A stretch of DNA of 64,000 nucleotides from Methanomicrobia archaeon. GTDB taxonomy: Archaea; Halobacteriota; Bog-38; Methanoflorentales; Methanoflorentaceae. Positions 1 through 20,542 of this stretch are shown one piece after another. Location: contig JACTTZ010000010.1 of assembly GCA_015660915.1 (NCBI GenBank), forward strand, positions 7,513 through 71,512. Direction: 5' to 3'. The translations under genes and the position numbers were made by a program. The first letter of the stretch is position 1; each line of letters opens with the position of its first letter. The notes under the pieces are model-generated. The model did no database searches and was not told where the DNA came from. It worked only from the letters and a program-made list of their open reading frames with translations.

Positions 1-1327
1 GCCCAGAGGGGTTCCACAAAAGCAGAAACAGGGCGATAATAATCGAGCCGCATACGCTCTTTACGACGAATCCGCCGTTCACGTCAAACTTAAAGTATCT
101 AGATGAATAGATTGCAGTCAACACGAAAGCGAGCAGGAATGCAAGGAAAGTGGTCAATGCAGCACCTATGAGGCCTAGATAGGGAATAAGTACCAAGTTT
201 AAACCGAAATTTAACGCGGCGCTCAGTATCCAGATCGTGCCAATGATGGCGGTCTTCTTTTTTAATGCGATTATCGTAACAAGCACCGAGTACGCTCCGA
301 TCAGCGCAGTTCCTGCAGCAACAAACGGAGTAACTAAGTAGCCGTTTGTTGCAATCTGCTGCGTGGTTAGCACAAGCAAAATCGGCTTTGATAAGACCGA
401 TAAGGCAAACACGCACGGGAGGGCAATTCCGATATAGTACTTCAGCGAGTATGTCATGATCGTGCGTACATCCGCTATGTTGTTCTCGTCGTAGTGTTTC
501 GATAGAACCGCAGGAAGCAGTGTCGCTAACGGTGCTGCGATCATGCTGATGGTAACCCCTGCAGTGTATGCCGGCGAATAATAGCCCACCGCTGCGGTAC
601 CTAAAAAAAGCGCAATGAGATAACGATCGCTTGAATTTACGATCCAACCAGATAGACTGCCCGGGACTAGTGGTAGGCCGTAGTTGAGATATTGCCTCAC
701 GTACGTAAGTTTAGGGATAGCAAAACCAATCTCCGCGACGATGAGATACATCATAACGGAGAGCACCACAAGCTGCTGGATTAAGAGTGCTATCACGGCG
801 CCCTCCAATCCGTGACCCGCGAGGACAAAATAGGCTACGAGGGCCGTATTCAAGTACGCATTAAAAAGGTTTAAGTAAGTGTACCTTTTGATCTGCTGGA
901 ACGTTACAAAATACTGCCAAGCAAAAAAAATCAGGCACGCAATTAAGACGTTCGGTACAAGCAGCAAGGCTGTGGTGAGATTGTTTTGAAACAAGCTCGC
1001 CGCTATTTGCGGCACAAACAAAAGAAGCAGCCCAGAAACAGCCACGCTCGCAACGAAAACGATTAGTCCCGTGGAGTAGAACAACTCTCGGATGTCACGT
1101 TTGTCCTTTGCTGCAGCGCCAAACCGAATCAAGGAATTGTGGAGCCCTAAGGTCACAAGCGGGGGTAATAGGGCGAGTGTAATCATTATCAAAGCAAAGG
1201 CCCCGTAATCAGCTATGACCAGGTTCCTTGTTAGGATAGGGAGCAGAATGATATTGCTGAGAGTTACTAGAGGAGTTATTACTGCGCTCAATCCTATTCG
1301 CCGAACAGTGAGTGTGTATTTCCCCAT
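1..1327 (-). CDS. Wzx-like oligosaccharide flippase (polysaccharide biosynthesis/MATE-like exporter); runs off the left edge of the window
   Basis: Not in the ORF track because there is no stop in the window. Manual translation from ATG 1327 (MGKYTLTVRRIGLSAVITPLVTLSNIILLPILTRNLVIADYG...YGLPLVPGSLSGWIVNSSDRYLIALFLGTAAVGYYSPAY) stays open to base 1, with many TM helices and typical Wzx motifs. Confidence 0.88.
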   Translation of the reverse strand, partial: MGKYTLTVRRIGLSAVITPLVTLSNIILLPILTRNLVIADYGAFALIMITLALLPPLVTLGLHNSLIRFGAAAKDKRDIRELFYSTGLIVFVASVAVSGLLLLFVPQIAASLFQNNLTTALLLVPNVLIACLIFFAWQYFVTFQQIKRYTYLNLFNAYLNTALVAYFVLAGHGLEGAVIALLIQQLVVLSVMMYLIVAEIGFAIPKLTYVRQYLNYGLPLVPGSLSGWIVNSSDRYLIALFLGTAAVGYYSPAYTAGVTISMIAAPLATLLPAVLSKHYDENNIADVRTIMTYSLKYYIGIALPCVFALSVLSKPILLVLTTQQIATNGYLVTPFVAAGTALIGAYSVLVTIIALKKKTAIIGTIWILSAALNFGLNLVLIPYLGLIGAALTTFLAFLLAFVLTAIYSSRYFKFDVNGGFVVKSVCGSIIIALFLLLWNPSG

Positions 1328-1531
1328 TTACGTGGCTCTTCCTGTGTGATACATGAGCTTGACTGTTGCACGGCCGTTTTTCAACTTGCCGGTGCCGTGT
1401 AGCGCTCGTGCTAGGTCGCAAAAAACGGCTTAGTTGACCTTTGATCCGTCTTAGGTATTACTTTAATCGTCTCTAAACAATGTTGTTGACTGTCTCGCGC
1501 GTGGCACTTTTAAAAGGGGATTCCGAGTAAT

Positions 1532-2347
1532 TCAGCTCTCCGCATCTGACTGTAGCGATAACAAAATGGCGCTTGCTATTTTTCGCATCGCGCTAGTCAT
1601 TTGTTGCAGAGCGATCGGCGACGAGGTACTCCAGTCTCCAAAAACGGTGTGGATTTTCGATACGTTGTTCTTATGCTTCTTTATAACTCTTTTTAGTGCC
1701 ACATAGTATTCTTTCGGCAGGAATGTTGACCCTGTCATCGGACAACGGGAAATCAATCGGTCGACGGGCTCCGTTGGCGTTGAAGAAGTCCCTTCTGAAA
1801 GATGATACGTATGCAAAGGCAACACGTAAAGGGCAAAGCCGAGCAGCGTGCTGCTTACGCAATACTCCACCGCGTATAAATGCCAACCATCGCACGTTAT
1901 CTCGTCAAACTGCAGGACATTGAATACGTCGCGCGGAACGATCGTAAGACATTCGTCTAAAGTCTGTACAGTGACGGGTTCTGCTCCAACTATCTGTGTG
2001 CCTGCGGCGCTTGGAGGAGTACCATTTGTCAGGTTGGCTAAAATACAGCCACCCTCTCTCCTGCCTGCGATTCCAGCAACTCCGAGGTTTGGCAGGGAAT
2101 CCAGCATCCTTTCGGCGTCGTGTAGCCACTTAGCGTTGCACAAGCGAATATCCTGATGAACAAACATAACATACTTTCCGCGTGCCTTTCGACCACCAAA
2201 GTTTAAAGCCTGCGCTGCTGATGAGAACTCATTTTCAGTATTATCGATCGCAATTAACTCGTGAGGTACCGTTTGACGACTAAGGCTGTCCAATAAGAAA
2301 TCGGCAAGCAGATGCTCATTGTTGTAGACACACACGATTGATATCAT
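1532..2347 (-). CDS. GT2-like glycosyltransferase
   Basis: MISIVCVYNN...AIDNT...SAAQALNFGG...YVMFVHQDI (DxD-like) and TLDECL...FDE...DGWHLY. Start moved to ATG 2347. Confidence 0.8.
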   Translation of the reverse strand: MISIVCVYNNEHLLADFLLDSLSRQTVPHELIAIDNTENEFSSAAQALNFGGRKARGKYVMFVHQDIRLCNAKWLHDAERMLDSLPNLGVAGIAGRREGGCILANLTNGTPPSAAGTQIVGAEPVTVQTLDECLTIVPRDVFNVLQFDEITCDGWHLYAVEYCVSSTLLGFALYVLPLHTYHLSEGTSSTPTEPVDRLISRCPMTGSTFLPKEYYVALKRVIKKHKNNVSKIHTVFGDWSTSSPIALQQMTSAMRKIASAILLSLQSDAES

Positions 2348-3282
2348 TACTTCCTTGAGTCTCGAAGTTGTTTTCAAAGCCCCAGTTACACTCGCGGCTC
2401 GAACGCGGGATTTTGACAGTTCAGCAGTGCAGCCAGTGAGGTTAAGCGAACATGTGCGAACAAAAGCGATCTTTTCACGCGTTTCTTAGGTCAATTCGTG
2501 CCTTTCAGATCCCCGGCGGCAATCTATTGGTGCGTGACGAGGTAATCAAACACATCTGACGTGAGCCTTTATGTCGAAATAGTTTAGAATATGATGCTAA
2601 ATAGCTTTTTCACCGGAGGTCGCACCGGTTGCTGCCTGTTTGCACGCGCAATGATTCGGTCAGAAGATCACGGACGGCCAAGAGACGAAGTTAACTGCGT
2701 CATTATCAGAGGGCCCGACGCAAACGCTGCGCGAATGGCCAAAGCGCTGGACATAGAAGGCAGCAGCTGCGACGTACGTGACTGGGATGCTCCGTGCTCC
2801 AAAGCGACCGGAAGCTAGATATGACCGTCACGCGGCCGACCGTGCCTATTAAATGAGCCGTGCTGATCGTACGAAGTCCATCGTTTTTAGAACAAAGCGA
2901 CCTGGACCACGGCAAATGCATTGACGAAGAAAATCACCGAAATTGCCACTGAACCATCTGCACGCGTGCTTTGCTGCTTTACTTTGCGCAGTAGCAAAAG
3001 CAGCTTAGAAGTCGTGCTTATCGATTGACCGAGACGCTCTAGAGCCAGTCGAAGTCCGGACATTTGAGAAATTGGCGCCATTCGACTTTTTGTAAAACGG
3101 CCGTGCCCTTCCGCGTGCCAGACTCTTCCACGTGCTAAGTTGCCTAGGTCGCAAAGCTTATTGTGGGGCGATCAAGCCGATTCAGAAGCGTGTGGTCCCA
3201 CCCGTCCTTGGTTTTATTCCGTGCTCGCGTAGTAGCTAGGCACCAGAGTAGATACCTAAGTGGCCTTTTATACAAAAGCTGT

Positions 3283-4566
3283 TCATGGGTTTGTTTGCTC
3301 TAGCAGACGACAAATCACTTGAAATACTCGCTCTGAGTTGTTGCTGTCTTTAAACTTGTTGAAACGCGCACACACTTCTCTTCGCTCAGCTTTCCACGAG
3401 TCTTTTTCGACCGCCTCGCGCAGCAGGCGGAGCACGTCGGGCCAGTCTTTTGCTTTAGGCCCAGGCGTCACTTGGTCATAATCGTAGAACAGCTCGCGGT
3501 CTGCTGTTATGTATTGCTGGATGTCAAAAGGCGCAAAAACAATCGGACGATCTAGAAGCAAATAGTCGAAAAATACACTGGAATAGTCCGTTATGAGTAC
3601 ATCGGTCTCTCTCAACAGCGGGTAAATGTCTGGAAGATCTTCATCAGATAGGGTAAATATCCTCTCGAAGCCCGCTCCGTCCGAATCAGGATCTGCATGT
3701 CCGTCGTAAGGACGTGCCCTGAAGTACAGATGTGTCTTGATGATTAGGATTGCGCCCAACTCGCGGAGAGTTTGGTTCACGGTGTCAGCTTCGAACCCGT
3801 AGCGCGTAAACAAGTCAAGTTCTCGGCTGGCTTCTTGTCGGTAGGTGGGAACGTACAAAAAAAGGAATTGAAAATCTACTTCTCGTTTGATGCGTCTGAC
3901 ATACTCGTCGTCGAGTTTATTTAACCAAGGAGCGCCGAGCAAGCCATCATTTCTAGGATATCCGGTGACGGCTATCTCTCTTGCGTCGTTAAAAACGGTT
4001 TTCATGGTCTGTTTACTTTCATCAGACGTCGCGATGACGACGTCATAGTTCTTGTTAGGGCGAAGTCCCTCATCTATGAGCCGCCGTGCATATGAGCTCC
4101 TACGCATCGGCGTCTGACGGCCTTGGGCAGGAAACTTCTTTAATGGAGTTCCGTGCCATAACTGCACTGATTTTGTCCCTTTTGTTGTGTACAGATTAAC
4201 GTCAGATACGCCCACTGAAAAGATGATACAGCTGGCCCTCATTGAATAAAGGATGCCCCGGAGACTGTGCATGTAGTAGGCTTTATTTCCACTCGCTCGC
4301 AAGTCGGCTAGGATTGTTTTGTTGCGCGAGAGCCAAACGCCAGTAATTTCGGGCTGTTTGTGATGGATATAAAGGAATAGATATTTCGGGTTGTCAGCGA
4401 ATTTCTTTCCGTCCCAAGAGCCGAAGATCCAAATGTTTTTTCTGCGCGGAACAAAGCCGGAGATCAAATAAATCGTCCTGGTTGCGACTGCGACGGCCAG
4501 CTCGCCTAAGGACAACAACCACGCCTGCAAAAGGAGCTTAACTCTAGTCGTCTTTCTTTGGTTCAA
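3283..4566 (-). CDS. CDP-glycerol:glycerophosphate glycerophosphotransferase family protein (TagB/TagF-like)
   Basis: WIFGSWDGKKFADNPKYLF, VQLWHGTPLKK, VTGYPRND, LYVPTYR and DVLITDYSSVFFDYLLLDRPIVF are characteristic Glyphos_transf motifs. Confidence 0.9.
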   Translation of the reverse strand: MNQRKTTRVKLLLQAWLLSLGELAVAVATRTIYLISGFVPRRKNIWIFGSWDGKKFADNPKYLFLYIHHKQPEITGVWLSRNKTILADLRASGNKAYYMHSLRGILYSMRASCIIFSVGVSDVNLYTTKGTKSVQLWHGTPLKKFPAQGRQTPMRRSSYARRLIDEGLRPNKNYDVVIATSDESKQTMKTVFNDAREIAVTGYPRNDGLLGAPWLNKLDDEYVRRIKREVDFQFLFLYVPTYRQEASRELDLFTRYGFEADTVNQTLRELGAILIIKTHLYFRARPYDGHADPDSDGAGFERIFTLSDEDLPDIYPLLRETDVLITDYSSVFFDYLLLDRPIVFAPFDIQQYITADRELFYDYDQVTPGPKAKDWPDVLRLLREAVEKDSWKAERREVCARFNKFKDSNNSERVFQVICRLLEQTNP

Positions 4567-4696
4567 TCGCGGTTCTCACCCCAGCGTGCATCTGCCGCTT
4601 CATCTGCCAAATCAGCCACGTTTTCGGAGATTAATCTTGCGGTACGCTCAGCCAGACAGGAGATGAGGTGAGACGCTAGCTATCGCAGCAGGCATT

Positions 4697-5818
4697 CTAC
4701 GGAGCGAGAGGCTCTTTTGCCGTTTGGCATCGTGCGCTACGTGCTTCTTTGTCACAAATGACGTCAGCGATTTTTTCCGCCATCAGTCGCGCCGTCGTCA
4801 GTTTCCCGCCTATGACGTGGAAGGCATTCTTCGGAGCCTGTATCACTCGAAAATCGCGAGATTTTCGGCGTCCGTTCTCGAAATGGCTATCATTTTTGGC
4901 ACTTTCTGGATGATTGTCATCGGCGAGTGCCCGGACGCCGGCAAACGTGCTTAGCGTGGGTTGGTCCTTGACGCCGGGAAGAATCTGCGCAAATTCTTTC
5001 TTAAGATATGCGTCAGCCCAAGGCTGTGGATTCGCTTCTTCCGGGTTGTTAATCGTTGTTGACGTCGTTCCGAGCCACCCGTATCCATCGTGCACGATGT
5101 ATGCATCTGCGTCGGAGGGTTGGCGCAAATGCTGTATCCCGCGCGGAGATAATGCCTTTTGAACTATAATAGTGCCTTGGCTGTAAGTCACTGGGATGCT
5201 CGTATCGAGTTTGGCAGCTACCGTGTTGACCCACGGCCCCGTCGCGTTAATTATGTACGTAGTGCGCAAGTCGCCGTGGTTAGTCTTGATGCGGAATCCG
5301 TCATTGAGTTGGGTGATCGCACGTACCTCCGTTCCCTGGAAGAGACTGCCTCCGCAGAGCTCTGCAGAAGCACAATTGAGCCAGCAAAACCGTTGAGCAT
5401 TTATGTTTCTGTCGGTCGTTTCGACCGCAACAGCGAGATCTATGTTTAACGAGGGAATTTCTCTGAATACATCGCGTAAATCGAGTTCGGTCGCTTTGAC
5501 GTGAAGCTTCTTCGCTGCCCGGAGAGCGCCCCACGCGTACTCGGTGCTAAATCCAACGAAGTAGTTCTGCAACTCGCCGACGACTTCCGGAGCTATCGCA
5601 CTGATAATCGCGTTCTCCTCGGCGCACTCTTGTGCCACGATAGGGTCGCTGAGAACGTATCGCAGGCCACCGAGCAGATTCTGGTGGGACGCAGACGTCG
5701 TGCCACTGGCGATAGTGCGTCGTTCTAAGAGGGCCACTGAGAAGCCTCTCATCGCCAGATCGCGAAACGTCGAGGTGCCGGTTGCACCGCCCCCAAAGAT
5801 TACTACCTCGTATCGCAC
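4697..5818 (-). CDS. FAD-dependent glycerol-3-phosphate dehydrogenase-like oxidoreductase (GlpA/GlpD family, short form)
   Basis: GGGATG Rossmann motif, RDLAMRG, ASGTTSASHQNLLGGLRY, INATGPW, FAGVRAL, GGKLTTARLMAE. Ends where the GlpA C-terminal Fe-S domain would begin. Confidence 0.82.
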   Translation of the reverse strand: MRYEVVIFGGGATGTSTFRDLAMRGFSVALLERRTIASGTTSASHQNLLGGLRYVLSDPIVAQECAEENAIISAIAPEVVGELQNYFVGFSTEYAWGALRAAKKLHVKATELDLRDVFREIPSLNIDLAVAVETTDRNINAQRFCWLNCASAELCGGSLFQGTEVRAITQLNDGFRIKTNHGDLRTTYIINATGPWVNTVAAKLDTSIPVTYSQGTIIVQKALSPRGIQHLRQPSDADAYIVHDGYGWLGTTSTTINNPEEANPQPWADAYLKKEFAQILPGVKDQPTLSTFAGVRALADDNHPESAKNDSHFENGRRKSRDFRVIQAPKNAFHVIGGKLTTARLMAEKIADVICDKEARSARCQTAKEPLAP

Positions 5819-5821
5819 AGT

Positions 5822-6574
5822 TCACTTCTCGTGCTTTTTGATTTGCTGATACAGTGCTCTTGCGTAGAGCAGATCTTCATAGGTGTCGATTTCACAGCGG
5901 AGTAGCCCATTGGTATAAATAACGTGCAGCGTTGATGAATGTTGCATCAGGAGTCTGTCGAGCGGTTCCGAATACCATTCAGGGCGAGCTCTCGGCTCTT
6001 TGAGTGCGCGAGTGAACGCTTTCAGGAAGTCAGTACTGAGTTTGATCATGCTCGTATAAACAACGTTTCCTCGTACTCGCTTGCCGATACGTGCAGCGGT
6101 ATTGTTTGTCACTACGACTTTACAATCCTCGGGTTGAATGTCTATGCTGTTGTCGACGATGCAGGCGTTGTCGTACGGCGATTTGATAAGTTCCTTTAAA
6201 AGAGCCAGCTCGAAAAGTATGTCTCCGTCTAAAACAAGTACTGTGTCGTTTTCCGCATCAATGTGTTCTAACGCAAGCGAGAGACTGAAAGCGTTATCGG
6301 TTTGTTCGAACAGCTCGTTGTTGACGATAGAGACTGGAAGGCCCGTCTTGACGTTCGCGATGTGCTCTTGTACCAACACGCGCTTGTAACCGGCCACGAC
6401 AAAAACGTGGTTGACCGCAAGTCGCGCCAAGCACCGAATCTGGTGATCGATGATGGTATCCTCGTTGAGGGGCAACAAACATTTCGGCAAATCCTCAGTC
6501 AGAGGTCGCAATCTCGCAGAAGTGCCTGCTGCTAAAATTATTGCTTTTGTTTCCTTGCTTTTTTGATGCGTCAT
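5822..6574 (-). CDS. GT-A-fold nucleotidyltransferase, LicC/phosphocholine-cytidylyltransferase-like
   Basis: AIILAAGTSARLRPLTEDLPKCLL, VVAGYK, N..F..TDNAFSL, VLDGDILF and C-terminal EIDTYEDL. Confidence 0.85.
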   Translation of the reverse strand: MTHQKSKETKAIILAAGTSARLRPLTEDLPKCLLPLNEDTIIDHQIRCLARLAVNHVFVVAGYKRVLVQEHIANVKTGLPVSIVNNELFEQTDNAFSLSLALEHIDAENDTVLVLDGDILFELALLKELIKSPYDNACIVDNSIDIQPEDCKVVVTNNTAARIGKRVRGNVVYTSMIKLSTDFLKAFTRALKEPRARPEWYSEPLDRLLMQHSSTLHVIYTNGLLRCEIDTYEDLLYARALYQQIKKHEK

Positions 6575-6761
6575 CTGTTCTTAGCCGATATGCGGTCTCT
6601 GATCAGGCTCTTGAGTAGCGCCGCGTCGTGCGCTCCATAAGCCCTTGGTAGGTACAGTATTCTGAGAGAGCGACGAGTGAAACGGTGATTCCGATGGCTA
6701 TATTGCTAGGACCTAAGGCCGCGAGCAGAACAGTGATGCAGAGATCTGCTAATAAGACTTT

Positions 6762-6837
6762 TGATGTAGTTCTCGCGGCAAACACCCTTTAGAGCTCAGA
6801 CCAGGGTTCAAATCCAGACCCGGACGCTCATTTTTTT
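6762..6837 (+). pseudogene. Degenerate tRNA-like remnant followed by a T7 tract
   Basis: gatgtagt...ccctttagagctcagaccagggttcaaatcc...cggacgctca-ttttttt contains a TPsiC-like GGTTCAAATCC and a D-arm-like TGTAGT, but the stems do not pair. Confidence 0.3.
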
Positions 6838-6900
6838 AACATAAGATAACTAGAGCAGTTATTTGCTTCTATCAATTGTAAAATAGTATTAGTTTTTGAT

Positions 6901-7461
6901 TTGATGGACGATATGCGATTTCTATGTCGCCCATCCCTCGTTGCGGCGCTGCTCGTGTGGGTATCTCGGGTGGTTCGACGCGATAATCTTCACGGAGAGT
7001 CGAACTGGTCGGTGCATCGTCCCTCGCTACTTTTTTCAAGTGCCGATAGGGGCCCGGGCCTACGTGTTCATAGATGCTACGTGGCCGTGAGCGCTTCGGG
7101 AACCCAACGAGAGCTCTGTGGGATGGTCGGTATTTTTTGTACTACCCTTTGTCATCATCGCTTGGTTCTACACAGCGTGTATACTCAACCCCAGTGACGG
7201 ACGTTCCTAGTGCTGATCGCCATCCTCGCCCTCGACAATTTCACGAGTAAGTACGGCGTCTTCTCCTGCATTCTTATCGTCATCGTTCCTCTACCCGACG
7301 GTGATGTAGAACACGGTCGGGTCTTTTACGAGTTTCTACCTACCGGAGGCGCTAGTTTCTACGAGCCTTTCAGAATGGGTGGTCACAATCTCAGCAGGTG
7401 CATTTCTGTTGTGGGCCTAGGAGTTGAAGCGACAGCTTGGACACGGCTGGCGTTCGGATAG
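6901..7461 (+). pseudogene. Decayed integral membrane protein gene (possibly GT-C/GT87-like)
   Basis: Hydrophobic segments are spread over different frames (LLVW / GYLGWFDAIIF / GWSVFFVLPFVIIAWFY / LIAILALDNFTSKYGVFSCILIVIVPL) and separated by stops. Confidence 0.3.
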
Positions 7462-7589
7462 CGCACTGTAATCTGAGATTCCGCATCTCAAATTGGCAAA
7501 AGCAGGCCGCACAACGAAAAAGCAGACCCGGTAAAAAAGCGAAGATTCATACCTACGCGCCGTTGCACCTTTGATTCCGCGTGCTTTAG

Positions 7590-7633
7590 TTAAATCAAGC
7601 GTGAAGCCCCCTGCGAGAGCTAGGAGGTAGTCG
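7590..7633 (+). mobile_element. Possible IS200/IS605-family right-end remnant
   Basis: ttaaatcaagcgtgaagccccctgcgagagctaggaggtagtc: imperfect hairpin with a GNRA loop followed by tagtc, resembling tnpB-element ends (recalled pattern). No transposase or tnpB in the window. Confidence 0.3.
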
Positions 7634-7804
7634 CTGCAATGATGGTACCTAGTGTTCTGCGTGCCCCGAAAGCGGTGCTGCCGTAACGGCTTCCATCCGC
7701 GATAATACTCTCTTTGACCTACGCCTCACAAAGCAGCACAAACCGAAAGCCTTATCTCCCTTCTTTTTGCATTGCTGGCGTAACCAAACGTTCCGGCAGA
7801 CATT

Positions 7805-9679
7805 ATGAACGCTTATGGGCTTGCTGCTGTACTTATTGTGATCCTTCTTTCGTCCGCTGCTGGTCTTCCGACTGTCCGGGCTGCGGACGCCACAGTCAAT
7901 AAGAGCCTCCCCACCGCGGGGGGAGATTCCAACTACTCCCAGGCTCTGAGCAATGCCGCTATCGTGAACGCTTCCGCGACCCAGAAGAAGTACATCGTAT
8001 TTCGGGATGACGATATAGCACCGGACTATCCGAACCCCCATTATCTGGACACATTAAAAGCCGTCAATCAGGTGCACATTGATGAAAACGTCCCTGTGAC
8101 GCTAGCGGTCATTCCACATCCGGATCCGAATCTCAGCGCAAGCACGAACGAGTTGCTGGGAGACACATTGCTCCTCGACTATTTGCGCTCGATTGTGAAC
8201 AGCCCGCTGTTCGAATTCGCGCAGCACGGCTACACGCACCAAGAATACTCGCAAAAAACCGTGAGCACCGTGGAGCTTACCGGGGCAGCTCCACTTTTGG
8301 GTAGCGGCGGGCTGGCCGATGATTTCCCTGGGCTAACATCTGCGGCTCCGCTTGTTGGGCAGTCGCCGAGCGAGTTCTACGGGAGGCCATACGCTGATCA
8401 ATACAACATTATCAAACAAGGACGTGACGATATCAAGGGGGCGTTCGGGGTACAGCCAACGACCTTTGTTCCGCCTTGGAATACCGGTGACAGCAACACT
8501 CTGAAAGCTGCGAACGCACTCGGGTTCACGCTGTATAGCACATCGCCAGCGGACTTTAACACATACGATGCGATCTTGCAGGGGATCCGTGTCCAGGGCG
8601 TGCCCCTTTCGCTCGGCTGGGCAAGCGACACTGATTGGCAGGCGGGAATGTCGCAACTCAACCAGCAGACCGACAGCCTATTGAACGCAGCAAATGGCGG
8701 CGGAACTTTTGTGGTACTCTACCATTTCAAGGATTTTATGAACCCTGACGGATCGCCGGATCCGGCCCGAATAGCACTGTTCACGCAGTACATCGACCAT
8801 CTAAAAGGCCGCGGCGATGTGCTCTTCAGCACGCTTAGCGGTCAATCGGTGCTGAACCCCTCTCCAGCGCCAGCTGTGTACTCGCAGGATGGGAATAGTC
8901 TTGACGTCTTTGCACAAGGCGTATACCATGCCCTCTGGCACAAGGATTGGAATGGCACGACGGGCTGGTCCAGCTGGGAATACCTCGGCGGGTACCTGAC
9001 GTCGTCACCCGTTGTGACGTCATCGGGTAATGGTGCGATTGACGTCTTTGTGCGCGGCACCGACGGCGCCCTCTGGTCGAAGTATACCACGGATGGAGGG
9101 ACCAGCTGGTCCAACTGGATCTCTCTCGGCGGGCAGATTGCTGCCGGCACAGGACCAGCAGCGTGCTCATGGGGCTCAGGCCGTCTCGACGTCTTTGTAG
9201 AGGGTACGGATGGTGCTCTGTGGCATAAAGGAGGTACCGGCACGTGGTCAAGCTGGCAATCCCTCGGCGGGGTTCTTACGTCGTCACCCGCAGCGGCGTC
9301 ACAGACGACCAATAGCATTAACATCGTCGTACGCGGCAACGACGGTGCTTTGTGGCATAAGTGGTGGTCGAACGGATGGTCAAGCTGGCAATCATTGGGC
9401 GGAAAGATTGCCTCCGGTACAGGACCGGCGGCCAGCTCATGGGGCTCAGGCCGTCTCGACGTCTTTGTAGAGGGTACGAACGGCGCCCTGTGGCATCGAC
9501 CGTATAGCGGCAGCTGGGGAGGCTGGGACTCCCTTGGGGGGTACCTAACCTCGTCACCTACAGCAGCGTCATCGACTAGCGGTAAGATTGACGTCTTTGT
9601 CCGCGGCGGCGACAACGGCCTCTGGCAGAAGACCTATAACAACGGGTGGGTATCCTGGACTTCCGTCGGCGATATGTAA
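7805..9679 (+). CDS. Secreted NodB/CE4-type polysaccharide deacetylase (DUF2334-like) fused to a six-repeat Trp-rich PLL-like lectin beta-propeller
   Basis: Signal peptide; VFRDDDI, QHGYTH and FVPPWN motifs; six repeats of PA..SW..GRLDVFV.GTDGALWHK..W..W.SLGG. Confidence 0.85.
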   Translation: MNAYGLAAVLIVILLSSAAGLPTVRAADATVNKSLPTAGGDSNYSQALSNAAIVNASATQKKYIVFRDDDIAPDYPNPHYLDTLKAVNQVHIDENVPVTLAVIPHPDPNLSASTNELLGDTLLLDYLRSIVNSPLFEFAQHGYTHQEYSQKTVSTVELTGAAPLLGSGGLADDFPGLTSAAPLVGQSPSEFYGRPYADQYNIIKQGRDDIKGAFGVQPTTFVPPWNTGDSNTLKAANALGFTLYSTSPADFNTYDAILQGIRVQGVPLSLGWASDTDWQAGMSQLNQQTDSLLNAANGGGTFVVLYHFKDFMNPDGSPDPARIALFTQYIDHLKGRGDVLFSTLSGQSVLNPSPAPAVYSQDGNSLDVFAQGVYHALWHKDWNGTTGWSSWEYLGGYLTSSPVVTSSGNGAIDVFVRGTDGALWSKYTTDGGTSWSNWISLGGQIAAGTGPAACSWGSGRLDVFVEGTDGALWHKGGTGTWSSWQSLGGVLTSSPAAASQTTNSINIVVRGNDGALWHKWWSNGWSSWQSLGGKIASGTGPAASSWGSGRLDVFVEGTNGALWHRPYSGSWGGWDSLGGYLTSSPTAASSTSGKIDVFVRGGDNGLWQKTYNNGWVSWTSVGDM

Positions 9680-14372: not shown

Positions 14373-15925
14373 GTGGAAGTAGCAGGGCGAACGATAACCA
14401 AGTATAGCATCGCCTTGTTGGGCATTGTGCTCGCCGGCGCTTTTTTCAGGGTCTATCACTAGGCACACAAAGCCTGTGGCTCGATGAAGTCATATCCGTG
14501 CGTTGGAGCCTGTTGAGCGTGCCTCAAATGGTGCAAGTTACAGCGCAGGATGTGCATCCTCCCCTCTATTACTTCCTGCTACACTACTGGATGACGATTT
14601 TTGGCACCTCAGAGTTCGGTGTGAGGCTTCTATCGGCTCTTTTTGGGATCCTCGCGATACCGATGATCTACGTGGTGGGCCGTCAGCTCTTCAACAAGCA
14701 GGTAGGGCTGGTGGCTGCGCTCAATCTCGCGCTGTCATCGTTCAACATTATGTACTCCCAAGAGGCGCGGATGTATACCCTTATGGTCCTCTTGGCCCTT
14801 CTCTCTATGTACTTTTTCTGGCGCTTCTTACAGCAGGGGAATCTTGTTTCGTCTATCGGCTATGTTCTCTCAACAACGCTTTTGGTGTGGACGCACAATT
14901 ATGGCTGGTTTATCGTCATTGCTCAGAACATCTACGTCGTGATTTTGCTAGCGCTGTCAACGGATCGCACATTTCTGCTGAAGCGCTGGGCCGTGCTGCA
15001 AGCGATCGTTGTAGCGCTTTTTGTTCCGTGGATGGCCGTCTTGATCCAACAAATCTTGCGGCACTTAGCAACGGGATCCAGTTTAGCAGTCCCTACAATA
15101 GCCGATTTTATTTACACCTTTTCTGGCTATTCCGGCACGGTAGTGTTGTTAGTGCTCTTTCTGGGGTTGTCGGTAGTCTCCTTATTCGGGATTCAAAAAG
15201 TACGCGGTTCGATGGATTGGAAAGCTCCTTTGAAAGCTCTCGAAGGCTACGCTTGGGAAGTGCGTATTCAAGGTGCAGCACCGGTGCACTTTCTCGCGGT
15301 GTGGGTGCTCACCATCAACCTCATACCGTTCATTATTTCTCGCTTTTCCACCCCGATATACCTCGACAAATACACGATCGCAGCTTCAGTGGCGCTTTAC
15401 ATACTAGTCGCCAAGGGGATACGAAATATCAACTATAGGTACGCCCAGATCGCTGTTATCGGCATCATCGTCGTATTGTCTATGGCGAATTTGCAAGTGT
15501 ACTATACTTCGATAACAAAGCCGCAAGCGCGACAGGCGATTAGTTTCATTGACACAAATCTCAAAAGCGGAGATGTTGTTTTAATTTCTCCCGACGGCCA
15601 TAGCATAGTTTTTGACTACTACAACAACGGGATAGATGCTGTTGTCAAACCACTCCATTATTGGGGTGTTGTCGGCAACACAACCAACTCTTCGGCAACA
15701 CCGTCAGTCAAGGACAAAATAAACGGAATTCAGTCAGATGTGAGTGGTCACGACAGAGTATGGCTTTTCGCTTCAAACTTCATAGCTGGAAAGGCTGCGG
15801 AGAATTTCACATTACGCATTCTCAATGAATCATACGTGAACATTGAAACTAAGACTTACGCAGGTGGGAGCTCGCTTTTCACATCATATGGCTATGACGT
15901 GTACTTGTTTGAGAAACGCGCGTGA
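14373..15925 (+). pseudogene. GT-C fold (PMT/ArnT, GT39-like) lipid-phosphate-sugar transferase with a 1-nt deletion near 14459
   Basis: Frame 1 ...GAFFRVYH* joins frame 2 LGTQSLWLDEVISVRW if cac-cta is restored from cacta. Downstream motifs: DVHPPLYY, RLLSALFG, YSQEARMY. Confidence 0.85.
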
Positions 15926-15989
15926 ACTTCCTCGAGCCTTGACGTATCGCAGACAGGATCAATCAACGATCCGTCTGACGAACGACAAA

Positions 15990-16180
15990 ACTTGGCATTC
16001 GTTGGTGCAGTCGCTGAGCAACGAACAGATGAGATATCAAGTTCCTGGATGCCCGACGATATACACCAACGCGAGCGGCACGGCTAGGTTCACACAGACG
16101 TGGACGCAAGCCGGCACACTCCCTATTAAGCCTCCTTCGCTGGTGACACGTGGTATAAGGCATCGTCGGTCGCTATCTGA
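15990..16180 (+). pseudogene. Remnant of an Ig-like surface-protein domain
   Basis: TIYTNASGTARFTQTWTQAG, then in a shifted frame SFAGDTWYKASS. No start codon or signal peptide. Confidence 0.4.
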
Positions 16181-16647
16181 TGACTCCAGATCTGGTTGAT
16201 TGCATCAAATGCGCTACGCTTGCAACGCGGGCCAAGTTGCGGCTTATTGATGCCGTGCGCTTGCTTCGTCAGGAGCGAGATGTCTACGCGCACGCGATAG
16301 AGGGCTTGAGGTGTGACGCCGGAGACAAAATTGGCTTTACAGAGCAGTCATTGATTTTGCTCTCCAATGGGCTCATTTGTACGGGAAATACAACAGTATT
16401 TGGAAAAGAAAATCTCCAAACCACCAGCAGATGCTGAAGGAACGTCAGCGGAGAACTAACCAGCGCGTCTTTTTCCACATTTGAGGTAAATCGTTGGCAG
16501 CTCGTTAATGATGGAGTTTGAATCGCGCTATTGTCCTTCGCGTGACGTCTTACAGGGTAGCGGAGGGGGTCTCGCACACAAACGCTTGAGCGATGATCGA
16601 GCACTGTGTGGCCGGGGACAGTTGCTAACATAACGCAGGCCGCACAA

Positions 16648-16656
16648 GCTTTAAGT
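16648..16656 (+). promoter_or_regulatory. TATA-like element upstream of the nucleotide-sugar dehydrogenase/GT cluster
   Basis: caagctttaagta about 25-30 nt upstream of ATG 16680. Confidence 0.35.
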
Positions 16657-16679
16657 AAGCCCCAGCAAACCTCAAGTGG

Positions 16680-18084
16680 ATGCAGGCAATCTCAATCGTT
16701 GGCACCGGATACGTCGGACTAAGTACGGCCGTTTGTTTTGCCTCACGTGGTTTCCGCGTCATTGCATCTACTCACGACAAAGAAAAGGCTGAAACGATTA
16801 ATTCGAAAAGGGCGCCTTTTTATGAGCCAACGACTCGAAGAAATGCTCCGGAAAAGCGTCGAGTCGAAAATGCTGCGTGCGGTCGATACCCGCGATGAAG
16901 CGGTGCGTCAGACTAACGTGACGTTTCTTACGGTGGAGACTCCCGAGACTGCAGACGGACGAATCGACCTCCGCCACGTCGTTCGAGCCTGCGAGGAGAT
17001 CGGCCGTGCGCTTAAGAAGAAAAACGCCTACCATCTCGTCGTCATCAAAAGCACTGTCGTGCCTGGGACAACTCGTGATGTGGTGAAACCTATCCTTGAG
17101 AGGACAGCGGAGTTGAGCGCAGGCCCCGATTTTGGGTTGTGCATGAATCCCGAATTTTTGCGACAGGGCTCAGCAATCGCCGATACATTGCGTCCTGATC
17201 GCGTTGTGATAGGTGAAAACGACGAGCGCTCCGGCAAAATGCTCGAGGACCTGTTTGACAGTTTTTACGGGCACAAGGTCCGTACACTCAGGATGAACCT
17301 TGAATCGGCGGAAATGGTGAAATACGCCAGCAACGCATTTCTCGCAACGAAGATATCATACGCGAACGAGATCGCAAATATCTGTGAGAAGGTGTCTGGT
17401 GTCGACGTCTCACACGTTATGGCGGGAGTCGGGCTAGACGTGAGGATAAATCCGAAGTTCCTCAACGCAGGAGCCGGGTTTGGCGGGTCCTGTTTACCGA
17501 AGGATGTAAAAGCCGTGCGGGCGTTTGCAGCCTCTCATAGCTACGAAACGCCGCTGTTGCGCGCGGTGATCGCCGTGAATGACGCTCAAGCGCTTCACGT
17601 CGCTGAGCTCGCACTTGCGAAGCTCGGGCAGCCGAAAGGCAAAAAAGTAGCGCTTCTTGGCCTCGCTTTCAAGTCCAATACTGATGACGTGCGGGAAGCC
17701 CCCTCTTTGAAAATCGCTAAAGCGCTCCTCTACGCGGAAGCGTACGTCAGCGCGTTTGATCCAGTCGTCAAGAAGATCTCGCTCCCGGGATTTGAAGCGC
17801 TCGAATGTGCAGATTCGATCCCCGCCTGTCTGTCCGGCGCTCACTGCTGCGTCGTCATAACTGAGTGGGAAGAGTTCAAAGCCCTCACGCCTGACGACTT
17901 CATCAAATACATGGCACAACCCGTCGTGGTCGATGCTCGACGGATTTTTGATCCGCGACAGTTTCGCCAAAGGTTGGAGTTCAGCGCGGTCGGTCTGGGT
18001 GGCGGTGAGACCTTTGACGGAGTCCCGTGCGCCGTGACATCCAAACCGCGCACAGAACCGCCTGATGCGCTTAGGGTTGAATAG
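16680..18084 (+). pseudogene. ugd: UDP-glucose/GDP-mannose dehydrogenase family gene with a +1 insertion at about 16830
   Basis: Frame 1: IVGTGYVGL...APFYEP. Frame 2: RLEEML...IKSTVVPGTT, NPEFLRQG, KYASNAFLATKIS, GFGGSCLPKD, GLAFKSNTDDVREAP. The sequence cca-a-cga has one extra A. Confidence 0.88.
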
Positions 18085-18132
18085 CAACCTTTATGTCGCT
18101 AGCACAGACAGGATACAGAAACGAACAAGCAC

Positions 18133-19116
18133 ATGCGCGAAGCAATGACATCGGAGAGACTGGAGCAGAATTCACCGAAAAGCGGGCGACGAAACGACGT
18201 GTCAAGGGATTCCGACCGGCTTACGGTCATGGTGGGTATTCCGTGCTACAACGAGGAGGTAGCGATCGGCAGCCTCGTCGTACGTGCCTCTCAGTACGCG
18301 GACAGAATCGTCGTGCTCGACGATGGGTCCACTGACAAAACTGCGGAGGTCGCACGTCTCGCAGGTGCTGACGTGCTCGAACACAGCGCCAACTGCGGCA
18401 AAGGGGCCGCCGTGCGCGACCTTTTTAAGTACGCGGCACAATGCGGCGTTGATATCCTTGTTATTCTCGACGGAGATGGGCAACACAACCCCGATGACAT
18501 TCCGAAGCTCACACAGCCGCTGCTGCTCGATGAAGCCGATGTAGTTAACGGCAGCCGCTATCTGAACGGGGCCGGCAGAGAGACCCCCCGCTACCGCCGG
18601 TTCGGACAGATCGTTCTTGACACGTTTACGCGTCTGGGCTTCGGTCGTGACGTCAAGGTGACGGATACGCAGAGCGGCTTCCGCGCATACTCGATGAAAG
18701 CCGCTCGCGTTTTTAGATTCACCTCTGACCAGCTGGCGATCGACAGCGAGATGCTTATGGACGCAGGGAAGGCCGGACTGCGGATCAAGGAGGTGGACAT
18801 CAGCGTCCGCTATGACGTCGGACACTCCTCTAGGCACCCTGTCATGCACGGCATGCAGGTTCTCGTGGGAGTCCTGCGCAATATCGAGTTTAAGAAGCCC
18901 CTGCTCGCCTTCACTGTGCCTGGACTCATACTCATTGGCACTGGCGTCGCCTTGGCGGTGTACGTGGTGCGAGGATTCTACTTGTGGGGGCACGTTCCCA
19001 ACGGGCCCGCGATACTTATGCTCCTTCTCACGCTCGTCGGGACCTTCTTGGTGCTCACTGGCATTATCCTCGACTCCATGGCCTCGCTCATCACGTCACT
19101 AGGTGCGCGGCGTTAG
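18133..19116 (+). CDS. GT2 polyprenol/dolichol-phosphate glycosyltransferase (DPM1-like) with C-terminal TM helices
   Basis: IPCYNEE, VLDDGSTD, GKGAA, LDGDGQHNPDDI, GSRY, DTQSGFRAY and two C-terminal TM segments. Confidence 0.88.
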   Translation: MREAMTSERLEQNSPKSGRRNDVSRDSDRLTVMVGIPCYNEEVAIGSLVVRASQYADRIVVLDDGSTDKTAEVARLAGADVLEHSANCGKGAAVRDLFKYAAQCGVDILVILDGDGQHNPDDIPKLTQPLLLDEADVVNGSRYLNGAGRETPRYRRFGQIVLDTFTRLGFGRDVKVTDTQSGFRAYSMKAARVFRFTSDQLAIDSEMLMDAGKAGLRIKEVDISVRYDVGHSSRHPVMHGMQVLVGVLRNIEFKKPLLAFTVPGLILIGTGVALAVYVVRGFYLWGHVPNGPAILMLLLTLVGTFLVLTGIILDSMASLITSLGARR

Positions 19117-19411
19117 ATTTTTTAGGGCGTTAGAACGTTGTTCATTGTCAACCTACGGCTGAGTGTTATCGACTACGTCGTTCATGGAGTCACCGCCGGT
19201 TGCTTATACGTCCACGTCCGCTTTGAAAGGGCCGCGAAGCAAGAAGATAGGTTTATACTTCCTGCGCTATTTTGATACACGCACTTGCTCCTTTTGCTCT
19301 TCAGCAAATGCGGCATCGGAAGGACGTATACCTACACGTTCTCTGAGTCGCTCGGCAGTGTTGAGCGTTAAAGTAGTGTCTGAGGCACGGCTGGCGCAGA
19401 TTTACCGGATC

Positions 19412-20542
19412 ATGAAAATTGCGTTTATCGACATCTATAAAAGGATCCCTATTAGCAGCGGCGGTGATTGGTGGGTGTTCCAGCTGTTAGCAGGTTTAGC
19501 GCGAAATAATAGTGTAAGCACGTTTTATACGTCTGAAAAAAGTTCAGAAGAGGGTTATCTGCCAAAAGACATCAGTTTTGACACGCACTTTCTTCCATCA
19601 CGAGTCAAGTGGAGTCGCTTGTCGACGTGGCTCGACATCATCAGGCCCGATATGTTGTGGGACAAAGCACAGCTCCGCGATATCGAGGCGGATTGTGTGT
19701 TCGCGTTGATCTATGGGTATCACATAGCTGCGTACATCGCCAGAAAAAACGACGCGCCCCTTGTCCTCGTCATGCACAACGTTGAATGGCAGTACGTGGA
19801 AAGCGTGGGTTCGGCCTGGTACCTCCCAATTCGCATACTCGAAAACTGGATTCTCAAGAGGGTTGACGCTGTCATAACGATTAGTCCGCAAGATTACGAC
19901 TACGCGGTCAAGCACGCTTCCAGCCGCGTTTTTTACATACCACCAAAACCCGATGCCCACATCTTCAATCCCGATGGCGCCCGTTATGATTACGACAGCG
20001 ATCGCTTCAATGTAGTCTTTTACGGGAGTTTGGATCGATACCAAAACCAGGTTGCATTGACCTTTATCGCGAACGAGCTGGTTCCGGCACTCGCACGTGA
20101 GCGCTCGGGCGAGGCCTTCAAGGTGCACGTATTTGGTTCAGGAAAAGCTCCCGATGGCCTGTTTTCAGAAACTGGGATCAATTTCATTGGCGCTGTAAGC
20201 GATCCAGGACTGTACATTAGGGGGGCGGACGCGATCATCATACCTATCCAGAATGCGAGCGGTATGAAACTGCGAGCGGTAGAGTCGCTCGCCTGCGGAA
20301 AGCCCGTTGTGGCGACGCCCGAAGCTGTCCAAGGACTTCCTGAGGAGTTGAGAGCTATGACCTACGTGGCCAGCACGGCAGACGAATTCGTCGAAGTGCT
20401 CAAAGGCATTCGCGACGGGAGGTCGGCAAACAAGACGGATCCATCCGCCGTGCTCCGGTATGTGCACGGCGATACCGTGGATGACGTTATTAACTACGCG
20501 TTAAAGAAGACACGGAAACGCATCATTCTTCAAGAGCAATGA
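19412..20542 (+). CDS. GT4-like glycosyltransferase
   Basis: MKIAFID start; GMKLRAVESLACGKPVVAT motif. The ORF-track start (19163) appears over-extended. Confidence 0.8.
   Translation: MKIAFIDIYKRIPISSGGDWWVFQLLAGLARNNSVSTFYTSEKSSEEGYLPKDISFDTHFLPSRVKWSRLSTWLDIIRPDMLWDKAQLRDIEADCVFALIYGYHIAAYIARKNDAPLVLVMHNVEWQYVESVGSAWYLPIRILENWILKRVDAVITISPQDYDYAVKHASSRVFYIPPKPDAHIFNPDGARYDYDSDRFNVVFYGSLDRYQNQVALTFIANELVPALARERSGEAFKVHVFGSGKAPDGLFSETGINFIGAVSDPGLYIRGADAIIIPIQNASGMKLRAVESLACGKPVVATPEAVQGLPEELRAMTYVASTADEFVEVLKGIRDGRSANKTDPSAVLRYVHGDTVDDVINYALKKTRKRIILQEQ

Follow-up and report, generated by a model that had tools for sequence, protein, structure and literature searches.

In the Gram-positive wall teichoic acid branch, dihydroxyacetone phosphate (DHAP) is converted to sn-glycerol-3-phosphate (G3P) by the NAD(P)H-dependent enzyme GpsA, G3P is activated to CDP-glycerol by the HxGH-fold enzyme TagD/TarD, and the glycerol phosphate is transferred by GT-B enzymes of the PF04464 family (TagB/TagF/TarF). 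The same series of steps is predicted here for three neighbouring genes in a 64,000-nt stretch of a contig from a Methanomicrobia archaeon (JACTTZ010000010.1; the whole stretch is hereafter termed the window, and coordinates are window positions). In order of transcription, these genes encode a GT-A nucleotidyltransferase (NTase) resembling LicC and IPCT, a short GlpA-like FAD flavoprotein and a TagF-like transferase that carries the WHGTPLK catalytic-histidine motif. The archaeal locus departs from the bacterial branch in that the GlpA-like flavoprotein stands in for GpsA and the GT-A enzyme for TagD, with no homology in either case. It also contains a Wzx flippase, and no TagGH-type ABC exporter or TagO/TagA gene is present among the genes annotated around the trio, in the first 20 kb of the window and 7.5 kb to its left (no genome-wide search was made for them). 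Lastly, the TagF-like protein scores under the TarF, TarL and TarB equivalog cut-offs, and the host is an archaeon, with sn-glycerol-1-phosphate (G1P) as its own glycerol phosphate.

Several other described systems resemble individual parts of the locus. The CDP-ribitol makers TarI/TarJ of Staphylococcus aureus and Bcs1 of Haemophilus influenzae also join a polyol-phosphate dehydrogenase to a GT-A cytidylyltransferase, but their dehydrogenase is an NADPH-dependent alcohol dehydrogenase of the medium-chain dehydrogenase/reductase type, whereas the archaeal one is a GlpA-family flavoprotein, and glycerol takes the place of ribitol as the predicted polyol. LicC of Streptococcus pneumoniae, the IPCT enzymes of Thermotoga maritima and Archaeoglobus fulgidus, and PntC share with the NTase its size (~230-250 aa) and a glycine-rich loop at the N-terminus. 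Their identity to it is, however, 17-24%, and its GlpA-like and TagF-like partners point to glycerol phosphate rather than to choline phosphate, inositol-1-phosphate or 2-aminoethylphosphonate. The flavoprotein has the FAD and substrate domains of GlpD and of GlpA, the catalytic subunit of GlpABC, along with the motifs GGLRY, PSDAD, GTT, GVRxL, GGKLTTxRLMAE and CxT, but it lacks the BFD-like [2Fe-2S] domain and GlpB/GlpC neighbours and falls in an archaeal clade of its own.

The pneumococcal route, which starts from dihydroxyacetone and glycerol and relies on other enzymes, offers a precedent for CDP-glycerol synthesis by a LicC-like enzyme. Two bacterial systems are precedents for attaching one glycerol-phosphate-type group to a lipid-linked repeat unit while the genes for its precursor reside at the same locus: pneumococcal WchX, accompanied by gtp1-3 for CDP-2-glycerol, and WsfC of Paenibacillus alvei, which has a TagF-like domain (PMC1391919, PMC2943079). 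The pneumococcal gtp1-3 and wchX route (PMC1391919) was nonetheless rejected as a model for the archaeal cassette, which has no gene of the kinase/phosphotransferase type and whose dehydrogenase is GlpA-like. Annotations of TagF-family genes in Methanobrevibacter go back a long time (for example mru_1079; PMC5816558), and the passages of PMC8262930 that cite Rodrigues 2017 describe non-TagD glycerol-phosphate cytidylyltransferases in Aquifex and give the A. fulgidus enzyme as still unidentified.

A conserved gene pair with exchangeable partners

The distribution of the three genes was analyzed in 61 genomes, comprising that of the window itself together with 17 others from its genus, 6 from its family and 37 from its phylum. 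Matches to the NTase (>400 bits), the flavoprotein (>560 bits) and PF04464 (>188 bits) were obtained in exactly the same five genomes, on one contig and within ~4 kb. The trio is missing from the 13 other genomes of the genus (5 of 18 carry the cassette), two of which are single-contig assemblies, and an incomplete genome (G006) yielded a weak, partial PF04464 match of 55 bits. Given that all three genes co-occur in the same five genomes and are absent together elsewhere in the genus, the cassette is accessory and passed on or lost as a unit. Consistent with unit inheritance, the nucleotide homology to the closest species extends over exactly the three genes and ~210 bp upstream, between unrelated flanks. 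The dN/dS values against this species (0.12-0.21 for all three genes) indicate purifying selection, and a copy of the trio with 99-100% identity was detected on an independent metagenome contig. Together with the co-occurrence on one contig, these results argue that the arrangement is not due to chance.

To extend the comparison, 78 loci from three sources were pooled, namely a scan across GTDB, a scan of metagenomes and look-ups by identity. The NTase gene lies directly upstream of the flavoprotein gene in 64 of the 65 loci in which this could be tested. Among loci with at least 3 kb of flank on both sides, the neighbouring gene that could consume the product encodes a TagF-like protein in 31 cases, a CDP-alcohol phosphotransferase (CDP-OH_P_transf) in two and LicD in two, and is lacking in one. 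The TagF-like gene is present in all 28 such loci of two peat-methanogen clades, while the eight loci of more distant lineages comprise three with a TagF-like gene, two with CDP-OH_P_transf, two with LicD and one without a consumer. Pfam annotation confirmed a Wzx-NTase-flavoprotein-CDP-OH_P_transf-GT4 order in ANME-1 and the LicD neighbour in locus L013; no PF04464 gene was found in the genomes of loci L012-L015. The pair is usually located inside clusters of Wzx and glycosyltransferase (GT) genes, and its hosts encompass methanogens, ANME-1, a Methanomassiliicoccales metagenome-assembled genome (MAG) and contigs with proteins that NCBI labels Thorarchaeota.

An earlier note on this DNA had viewed the trio as a unit, and this holds for the five genomes above. 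Farther out only the pair is fixed, so that the conserved core is the NTase-flavoprotein pair and not the trio, the TagF-like gene often being replaced outside the genus. TagF-like, LicD and CDP-alcohol phosphotransferase proteins belong to unrelated families, and the property they share is a CDP-activated alcohol donor. The association of the pair with three CDP-alcohol-using families makes the strongest in silico case for regarding the NTase as a cytidylyltransferase and the pair as a CDP-alcohol supply module.

Canonical enzymes in the host genome

The genome harboring the window (2.04 Mb, ~91% complete) encodes McrA and a G1P dehydrogenase-like enzyme, and is hence that of a methanogen-type archaeon; its nearest public relatives are MAGs from peat (bog and fen), which carry the labels Methanobacteriota, Euryarchaeota or Halobacteriota. 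It contains exactly one PF04464 gene, the one beside the NTase-flavoprotein pair. Searches of the genome with the C-terminal domain of GpsA (PF07479) returned no match; this domain was used because PF01210 proved too unspecific, matching all 14 control genomes and a 449-aa open reading frame (ORF) here with 23.5 bits. No glycerol kinase (GlpK) was found in the genome either. TagD (TIGR01518) has no orthologue in it, with the best matches reaching 44.7 and 29.3 bits where the cut-off is 165.4, in ORFs of ~150 aa located elsewhere in the genome. In the absence of GpsA, GlpK and TagD, any donor for the TagF-like transferase would have to come from a non-canonical route, and the genes that immediately precede it, those of the NTase and the flavoprotein, are evident candidates for this role.

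The flavoprotein is a GlpA-like core without the C-terminal domain

The flavoprotein matches the DAO domain (PF01266) with 120 bits, and its best NCBIfam match is GlpA (TIGR03377; 255.7 bits, profile positions 1-376 of 530), with other DAO subfamilies reaching at most 54 bits. Its score lies below the GlpA equivalog cut-off of 552.8 bits. The protein ends at residue 373, after the CxT motif, with no match to the BFD-like [2Fe-2S] domain (PF04324), and its gene adjoins those of the NTase and the TagF-like protein, with no glpB or glpC next to it (the whole genome was not searched for these two). A profile of the flavoprotein family matched GlpD and the Bacillus halodurans G3P dehydrogenase with E-values of 1e-28 to 2e-33, and the GGLRY, GVRxL and GGKLTT motifs are in register between the family and GlpD. 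The AlphaFold2 (AF2) model (mean predicted local distance difference test, pLDDT, 91.9) superposes best on Escherichia coli GlpD, with TMq values of 0.82-0.83.

Phylogenetic analysis places the flavoprotein family in a monophyletic archaeal clade (SH-aLRT, the Shimodaira-Hasegawa-like approximate likelihood ratio test, 100), distinct both from full-length GlpA and from short GlpA-like proteins that make up a bacterial family. Forty-nine positions are common to the archaeal clade, full-length GlpA and this bacterial family, including H45, R53, Y54, D238, T251, T252, R296, R321, K339 and R344, some of which we take to be those assigned to substrate binding in GlpD; clade-specific substitutions are confined to seven positions. 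The bacterial short proteins (386-387 aa, 33% identity) are encoded on three contigs in operons with the order glpF-dhaK-dhaL-glpK-etfB-etfA-short glpA, and apparently represent a G3P dehydrogenase coupled to electron transfer flavoprotein (ETF), whose loss of the GlpA C-terminal domain was separate from that in the archaeal clade. This operon context indicates that a GlpA core devoid of the C-terminal domain and of GlpB/GlpC can act on G3P/DHAP with a soluble redox partner. ETF itself, which the bacterial family suggested as electron partner of the archaeal flavoprotein, was ruled out, as no ETF is encoded in the genome. Other matches of the GTDB scan initially taken for bacterial short GlpA were also discarded, their ORFs being full-length (500 aa in Smithella, 549 aa in Lokiarchaeum). 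In true GlpA loci (L021 and L063) such 500-549-aa proteins are followed by two ORFs of 400-440 aa consistent with GlpB and GlpC.

A sub-clade from DPANN archaea is basal in the archaeal flavoprotein family and is not accompanied by an NTase gene. On three DPANN-type contigs, including one from a Woesearchaeota MAG (L007, L151 and the P0056 contig), the short GlpA-like gene precedes genes for two CDP-alcohol phosphatidyltransferases and a PHP-family phosphatase, with CarS encoded nearby. This arrangement is a compact lipid head-group cluster and implies a dedicated supply of glycerol phosphate, which is the common denominator of all the contexts in which the flavoprotein is found.

The nucleotidyltransferase belongs to the LicC/IPCT group

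The NTase matches PF00483 (60.2 bits) and PF12804 (55.4 bits), and its best match in the PDB by sequence is LicC, the CTP:phosphocholine cytidylyltransferase of S. pneumoniae (1jyk, E-value 3.5e-15). The structures nearest to its AF2 model (pLDDT 92.8) are those of T. maritima IPCT (4jd0), LicC, PntC and A. fulgidus IPCT. Across sequence and structure comparisons, LicC, IPCT and PntC give E-values of 1e-15 to 1e-17 and TMq values of 0.77-0.85, at the low sequence identity given above, and the matches to structures 4jd0, 1jyk and 6pd2 confirm the NTP_transferase fold. The glycine-rich loop at the N-terminus and the metal-binding DGD are both present, and the LAAGxSxRL, KCLL, LDGDI (containing DGD) and EWYSEPL motifs are kept in ten orthologues. 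The NTase is thus predicted to be a CTP:glycerol-phosphate cytidylyltransferase, a specificity for CTP and a phospho-alcohol that we infer from the partner genes.

More distant homologues of the NTase are paired with CDP-OH_P_transf, in Alicyclobacillus and others, or with a TarJ-like zinc-dependent alcohol dehydrogenase (genome G038), pairings that fit a general pattern in which the choice of polyol lies with the dehydrogenase and its activation with the GT-A enzyme. On the Alicyclobacillus and related contigs (L089, L090 and L094), an NTase 35% identical to that of the window forms a conserved unit with CDP-OH_P_transf and a GT (Glyco_trans_1_2/1_4), reminiscent of CDP-alcohol pathways of the IPCT/DIPPS type. 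In G038 (L096, G038:C2:238500-248500, positions 3602-5446), a LicC-like NTase gene is directly followed by that of the alcohol dehydrogenase in a TarI/TarJ-like arrangement, adjoining asparagine synthase and methyltransferase genes, and this pair may be another archaeal CDP-polyol module.

The TagF-like protein is a PF04464 transferase

The third protein of the cassette matches PF04464 over almost the entire profile (positions 4-366 of 367) with 220.3 bits (gathering cut-off 22.1; E-value 5e-65). Among NCBIfam models it scores 129.1 bits with TarF (cut-off 550), 54.2 with TarL (1000) and 29.4 with TarB (500). A phmmer search aligned it with residues 354-701 of Staphylococcus epidermidis TagF (3l7i), and revealed conservation of the stretches 'vqlWHGTPLKkf' and 'litDYSSVfFDY'. 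The first contains WHGTPLK, the motif with the TagF catalytic histidine H444, and the second ITDYSSVFFDY, of which ITDYSS is the nucleotide-binding motif. At the second active-site histidine of TagF, H584, the window protein reads 'IIKTHLYF' against 'LLRMHYLI' in TagF, with the alignment offset by two residues in a low-confidence stretch. Homologues of similar length number more than 1,700. One metagenomic homologue (P0330, 551 aa), 41% identical to the window protein, presents a TagD-type cytidylyltransferase domain (PF01467) fused to the PF04464 domain. Together with the supply genes next door, this fusion lends indirect support to CDP-glycerol as the putative donor.

Proposed pathway and alternative readings

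The evidence from the three genes and their contexts suggests that the cassette probably makes CDP-glycerol from DHAP via G3P and adds glycerol phosphate to a lipid-linked glycan. In the first step, the flavoprotein would supply G3P, most likely by reducing DHAP with some electron donor. The genome encodes neither GpsA nor glycerol kinase, and the organism's own glycerol phosphate, G1P, is the opposite enantiomer. The direction is predicted to be reversed with respect to GlpA, given that the context is biosynthetic and not catabolic. The NTase, translationally coupled to the flavoprotein, would then condense CTP with glycerol phosphate to yield CDP-glycerol, in replacement of the HxGH-type TagD. 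Finally, the TagF-like transferase would act on the cytoplasmic side, where it would use CDP-glycerol to add glycerol phosphate to a lipid-linked oligosaccharide. This oligosaccharide would be built by the neighbouring GT2 and GT4 enzymes, flipped by Wzx once decorated, and might end on a surface protein or another envelope glycan. The reductive direction, the electron donor and the G3P stereochemistry we only infer.

The earlier note had arrived at the same family assignments, LicC-like, GlpA/GlpD-like and TagB/TagF, and these are borne out by the profile searches, the PDB matches and the AF2 models. Its view of two non-orthologous replacements likewise agrees with the lack of GpsA, GlpK and TagD in the genome, and with the proximity of the NTase to IPCT, LicC and PntC and of the flavoprotein to GlpA. 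It had also envisaged the addition of a polyol phosphate or a polymer. The in silico evidence supports glycerol-phosphate transfer, but it does not favour a teichoic-acid-like polymer over the addition of one glycerol phosphate, and sequence cannot tell the two apart.

Several points weigh against the proposed pathway. The substrate of the NTase is not readable from its sequence, and NCBI and JGI name its homologues phosphocholine cytidylyltransferase or choline kinase. The TagF-like protein, lying below every NCBIfam equivalog cut-off, is a member of its family but the orthologue of no characterised enzyme, and TagF-family enzymes can also use CDP-ribitol, the CDP-ribitol user TarL being itself a PF04464 protein. 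Neither an ETF in the genome nor a partner gene in the cassette is available as electron donor for the flavoprotein, and to our knowledge all characterised GlpA, GlpD and GlpO enzymes oxidise G3P. The absences reported above are not absolute, since the genome is incomplete. Furthermore, the ~150-aa CTP_transf_like ORF that gave 44.7 bits with TagD (C7:105769) constitutes an alternative candidate for the glycerol-phosphate cytidylyltransferase. It stays a candidate in view of such an activity in an Aquifex member of the FAD-synthetase family, as mentioned in the part of PMC8262930 that cites Rodrigues 2017.

Among the alternatives, the one that survives best, although we consider it unlikely, is that the NTase activates the organism's own G1P to CDP-1-glycerol, with the flavoprotein oxidising stray G3P or glycerol phosphate, or acting as a redox-neutral G1P/G3P epimerase via enzyme-bound DHAP. 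An epimerase would need no electron-transfer partner, which would explain why the flavoprotein lacks the C-terminal domain, adjoins no glpB or glpC and finds no ETF in the genome. We know of no precedent for a GlpA-type epimerase. G1P would be available through the G1P dehydrogenase-like gene, and the section of PMC8262930 citing Rodrigues 2017 describes a cytidylyltransferase activity in A. fulgidus extracts that prefers Gro1P, its gene being then unidentified. A G1P substrate, however, requires no dedicated dehydrogenase, and yet the flavoprotein adjoins the NTase in nearly every testable locus, with the active-site residues of the G3P-specific GlpA.

It is also conceivable, if improbable, that the pair makes another CDP-alcohol, such as CDP-ribitol, the CDP derivative of a different polyol or CDP-choline, for transfer by the TagF-like protein. 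The name 'phosphocholine cytidylyltransferase family protein' given by NCBI to NTase homologues, the LicC structure as best PDB match by sequence, the LicD partners in some lineages, the presence of TarL in PF04464 and the TarI/TarJ-like pairing of the related NTase in G038 would all agree with such a product. The partner of the NTase is, however, specifically GlpA-like by a wide difference in score from other DAO subfamilies, and retains the GlpA residues. No choline kinase or transporter-type protein is encoded in the cassette, and no LicA or LicB gene in its immediate flanks (choline kinase was not searched for genome-wide). The TagF-like protein, moreover, scores best with TarF, which transfers glycerol phosphate (129 bits, whereas TarL reaches 54), and its homologue P0330 is fused to a TagD-type domain. 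The least probable of the alternatives, that CDP-glycerol serves a soluble phosphodiester (diglycerol phosphate or solutes of the glycerophosphoinositol type) or a lipid head group (archaetidylglycerol), would accommodate the DPANN flavoproteins encoded with CarS and CDP-alcohol phosphatidyltransferases, the CDP-OH_P_transf gene after the pair in ANME-1 and other contigs and the Alicyclobacillus NTase relatives, but not readily the TagF-like partner within a GT2/GT4/Wzx/deacetylase island in the window and in every closely related locus with adequate flanks, nor an accessory distribution that fits variable surface structures and not core lipids or osmolytes.

Beyond the proposed pathway, we regard as possible, though rather doubtful, a broader scheme in which the pair is a hitherto unrecognised archaeal CDP-sn-3-glycerol synthase and the GlpA-type enzyme is run biosynthetically, whether as a DHAP reductase drawing on a novel low-potential donor or, needing no partner, as an epimerase that converts G1P to G3P. 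In this manner, archaea whose membranes are based on G1P might place the bacterial enantiomer on surface glycans and, in DPANN, in lipid head groups, and archaeal envelopes would have their first phosphodiester chemistry of the teichoic-acid type.

Organization of the locus

The three genes have intact, co-oriented ORFs, as the earlier note had described (Table 1), and the 3-nt spacing it had reported between the first two was verified: the TGA stop codon of the NTase is followed by 'act' and the GTG start codon of the flavoprotein. A GT2-like gene and a Wzx gene lie on the same strand; as a small correction, both are downstream of the trio by transcription, and ~900 bp without a long ORF intervene.

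Table 1. Positions of the cassette genes and surrounding features in the window.
Feature	Position	Strand	Remarks
LicC/IPCT-like GT-A nucleotidyltransferase (NTase)	6574..5822	minus	250 aa, ORF intact
Short GlpA-like FAD flavoprotein	5818..4697	minus	373 aa, ORF intact
TagF/TarF-family transferase	4566..3283	minus	427 aa, ORF intact; N-terminus hydrophobic
GT2-like glycosyltransferase	2377..1532	minus	PF13712 (Glyco_tranf_2_5)
Wzx/MOP-family flippase (Polysacc_synt)	1327..2, runs off window start	minus	PF01943 83 bits, PF13440 75 bits
PMT_2 GT-C transferase, UDP-glucose/GDP-mannose dehydrogenase, GT2, GT4	14498..20542	plus	Pfam; context only
Nucleotide homology block with closest species (L008)	3267..6786		81.6%; blastn, window 1-9000

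The intervening segment (2378-3282), between the TagF-like and GT2-like genes, contains no ORF of 80 aa or more. In the related island L001, a GT2 gene (10853-11878) occupies the position corresponding to this segment, and a tblastn search of the segment detected no GT2 remnant; the gap is possibly a deletion or a replaced segment. An orthologue of the GT2-like gene of the window (43% identity) is found at the same relative position in L001, and Wzx orthologues with 76-85% identity are present in the islands of related genomes.

Pfam annotation identifies the ~25 kb around the trio as a surface-glycan island, comprising a methyltransferase, GT2 and GT4 genes, a UDP-sugar dehydrogenase, the PMT_2 GT-C transferase, a secreted deacetylase-lectin and propeller surface proteins. 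To the left of the window, the island is bordered by a gene (L088, G000:C8:1-7800, positions 3-2270, minus strand) for a protein of more than 756 aa with papain-family cysteine protease and lectin-like domains, which runs off the contig end. Upstream of the NTase, ~1.2 kb (6575-7804) contain only short ORFs (83-130 aa), and the end of the homology block with the closest species places the border of the cassette within this segment.

Significance

The earlier note had not recognised the arrangement as a described archaeal module, and literature searches, in which most subscription journals were outside the scope, returned no paper on a GlpA-like and LicC-like supply pair or on archaeal glycans bearing glycerol phosphate. 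A 2018 review of archaeal surface biogenesis makes no mention of phosphodiester-linked glycerol. What appears to be new is an archaeal glycerol-phosphate transfer of the teichoic-acid type fed by two non-orthologous enzymes, a comparative-genomic prediction that would extend known chemistry without introducing a new principle.

If the proposed pathway is correct, archaeal surface glycans can bear phosphodiester-linked glycerol, a modification of the teichoic-acid type that confers negative charge. It would assign a function to two families that are widely misannotated, one as 'phosphocholine cytidylyltransferase' or 'choline kinase', the other as 'FAD-dependent oxidoreductase' or 'glycerol-3-phosphate dehydrogenase'. 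Because the cassette is patchily distributed within a single genus of peat methanogens, it may add to strain-level variation of the cell surface, for instance in recognition by viruses or predators. A GlpA-type flavoenzyme would furthermore operate in biosynthesis, as the source of G3P in organisms whose membranes are based on G1P, and the finding would bear on the debate about the 'lipid divide' and on the source of head-group precursors in DPANN archaea.

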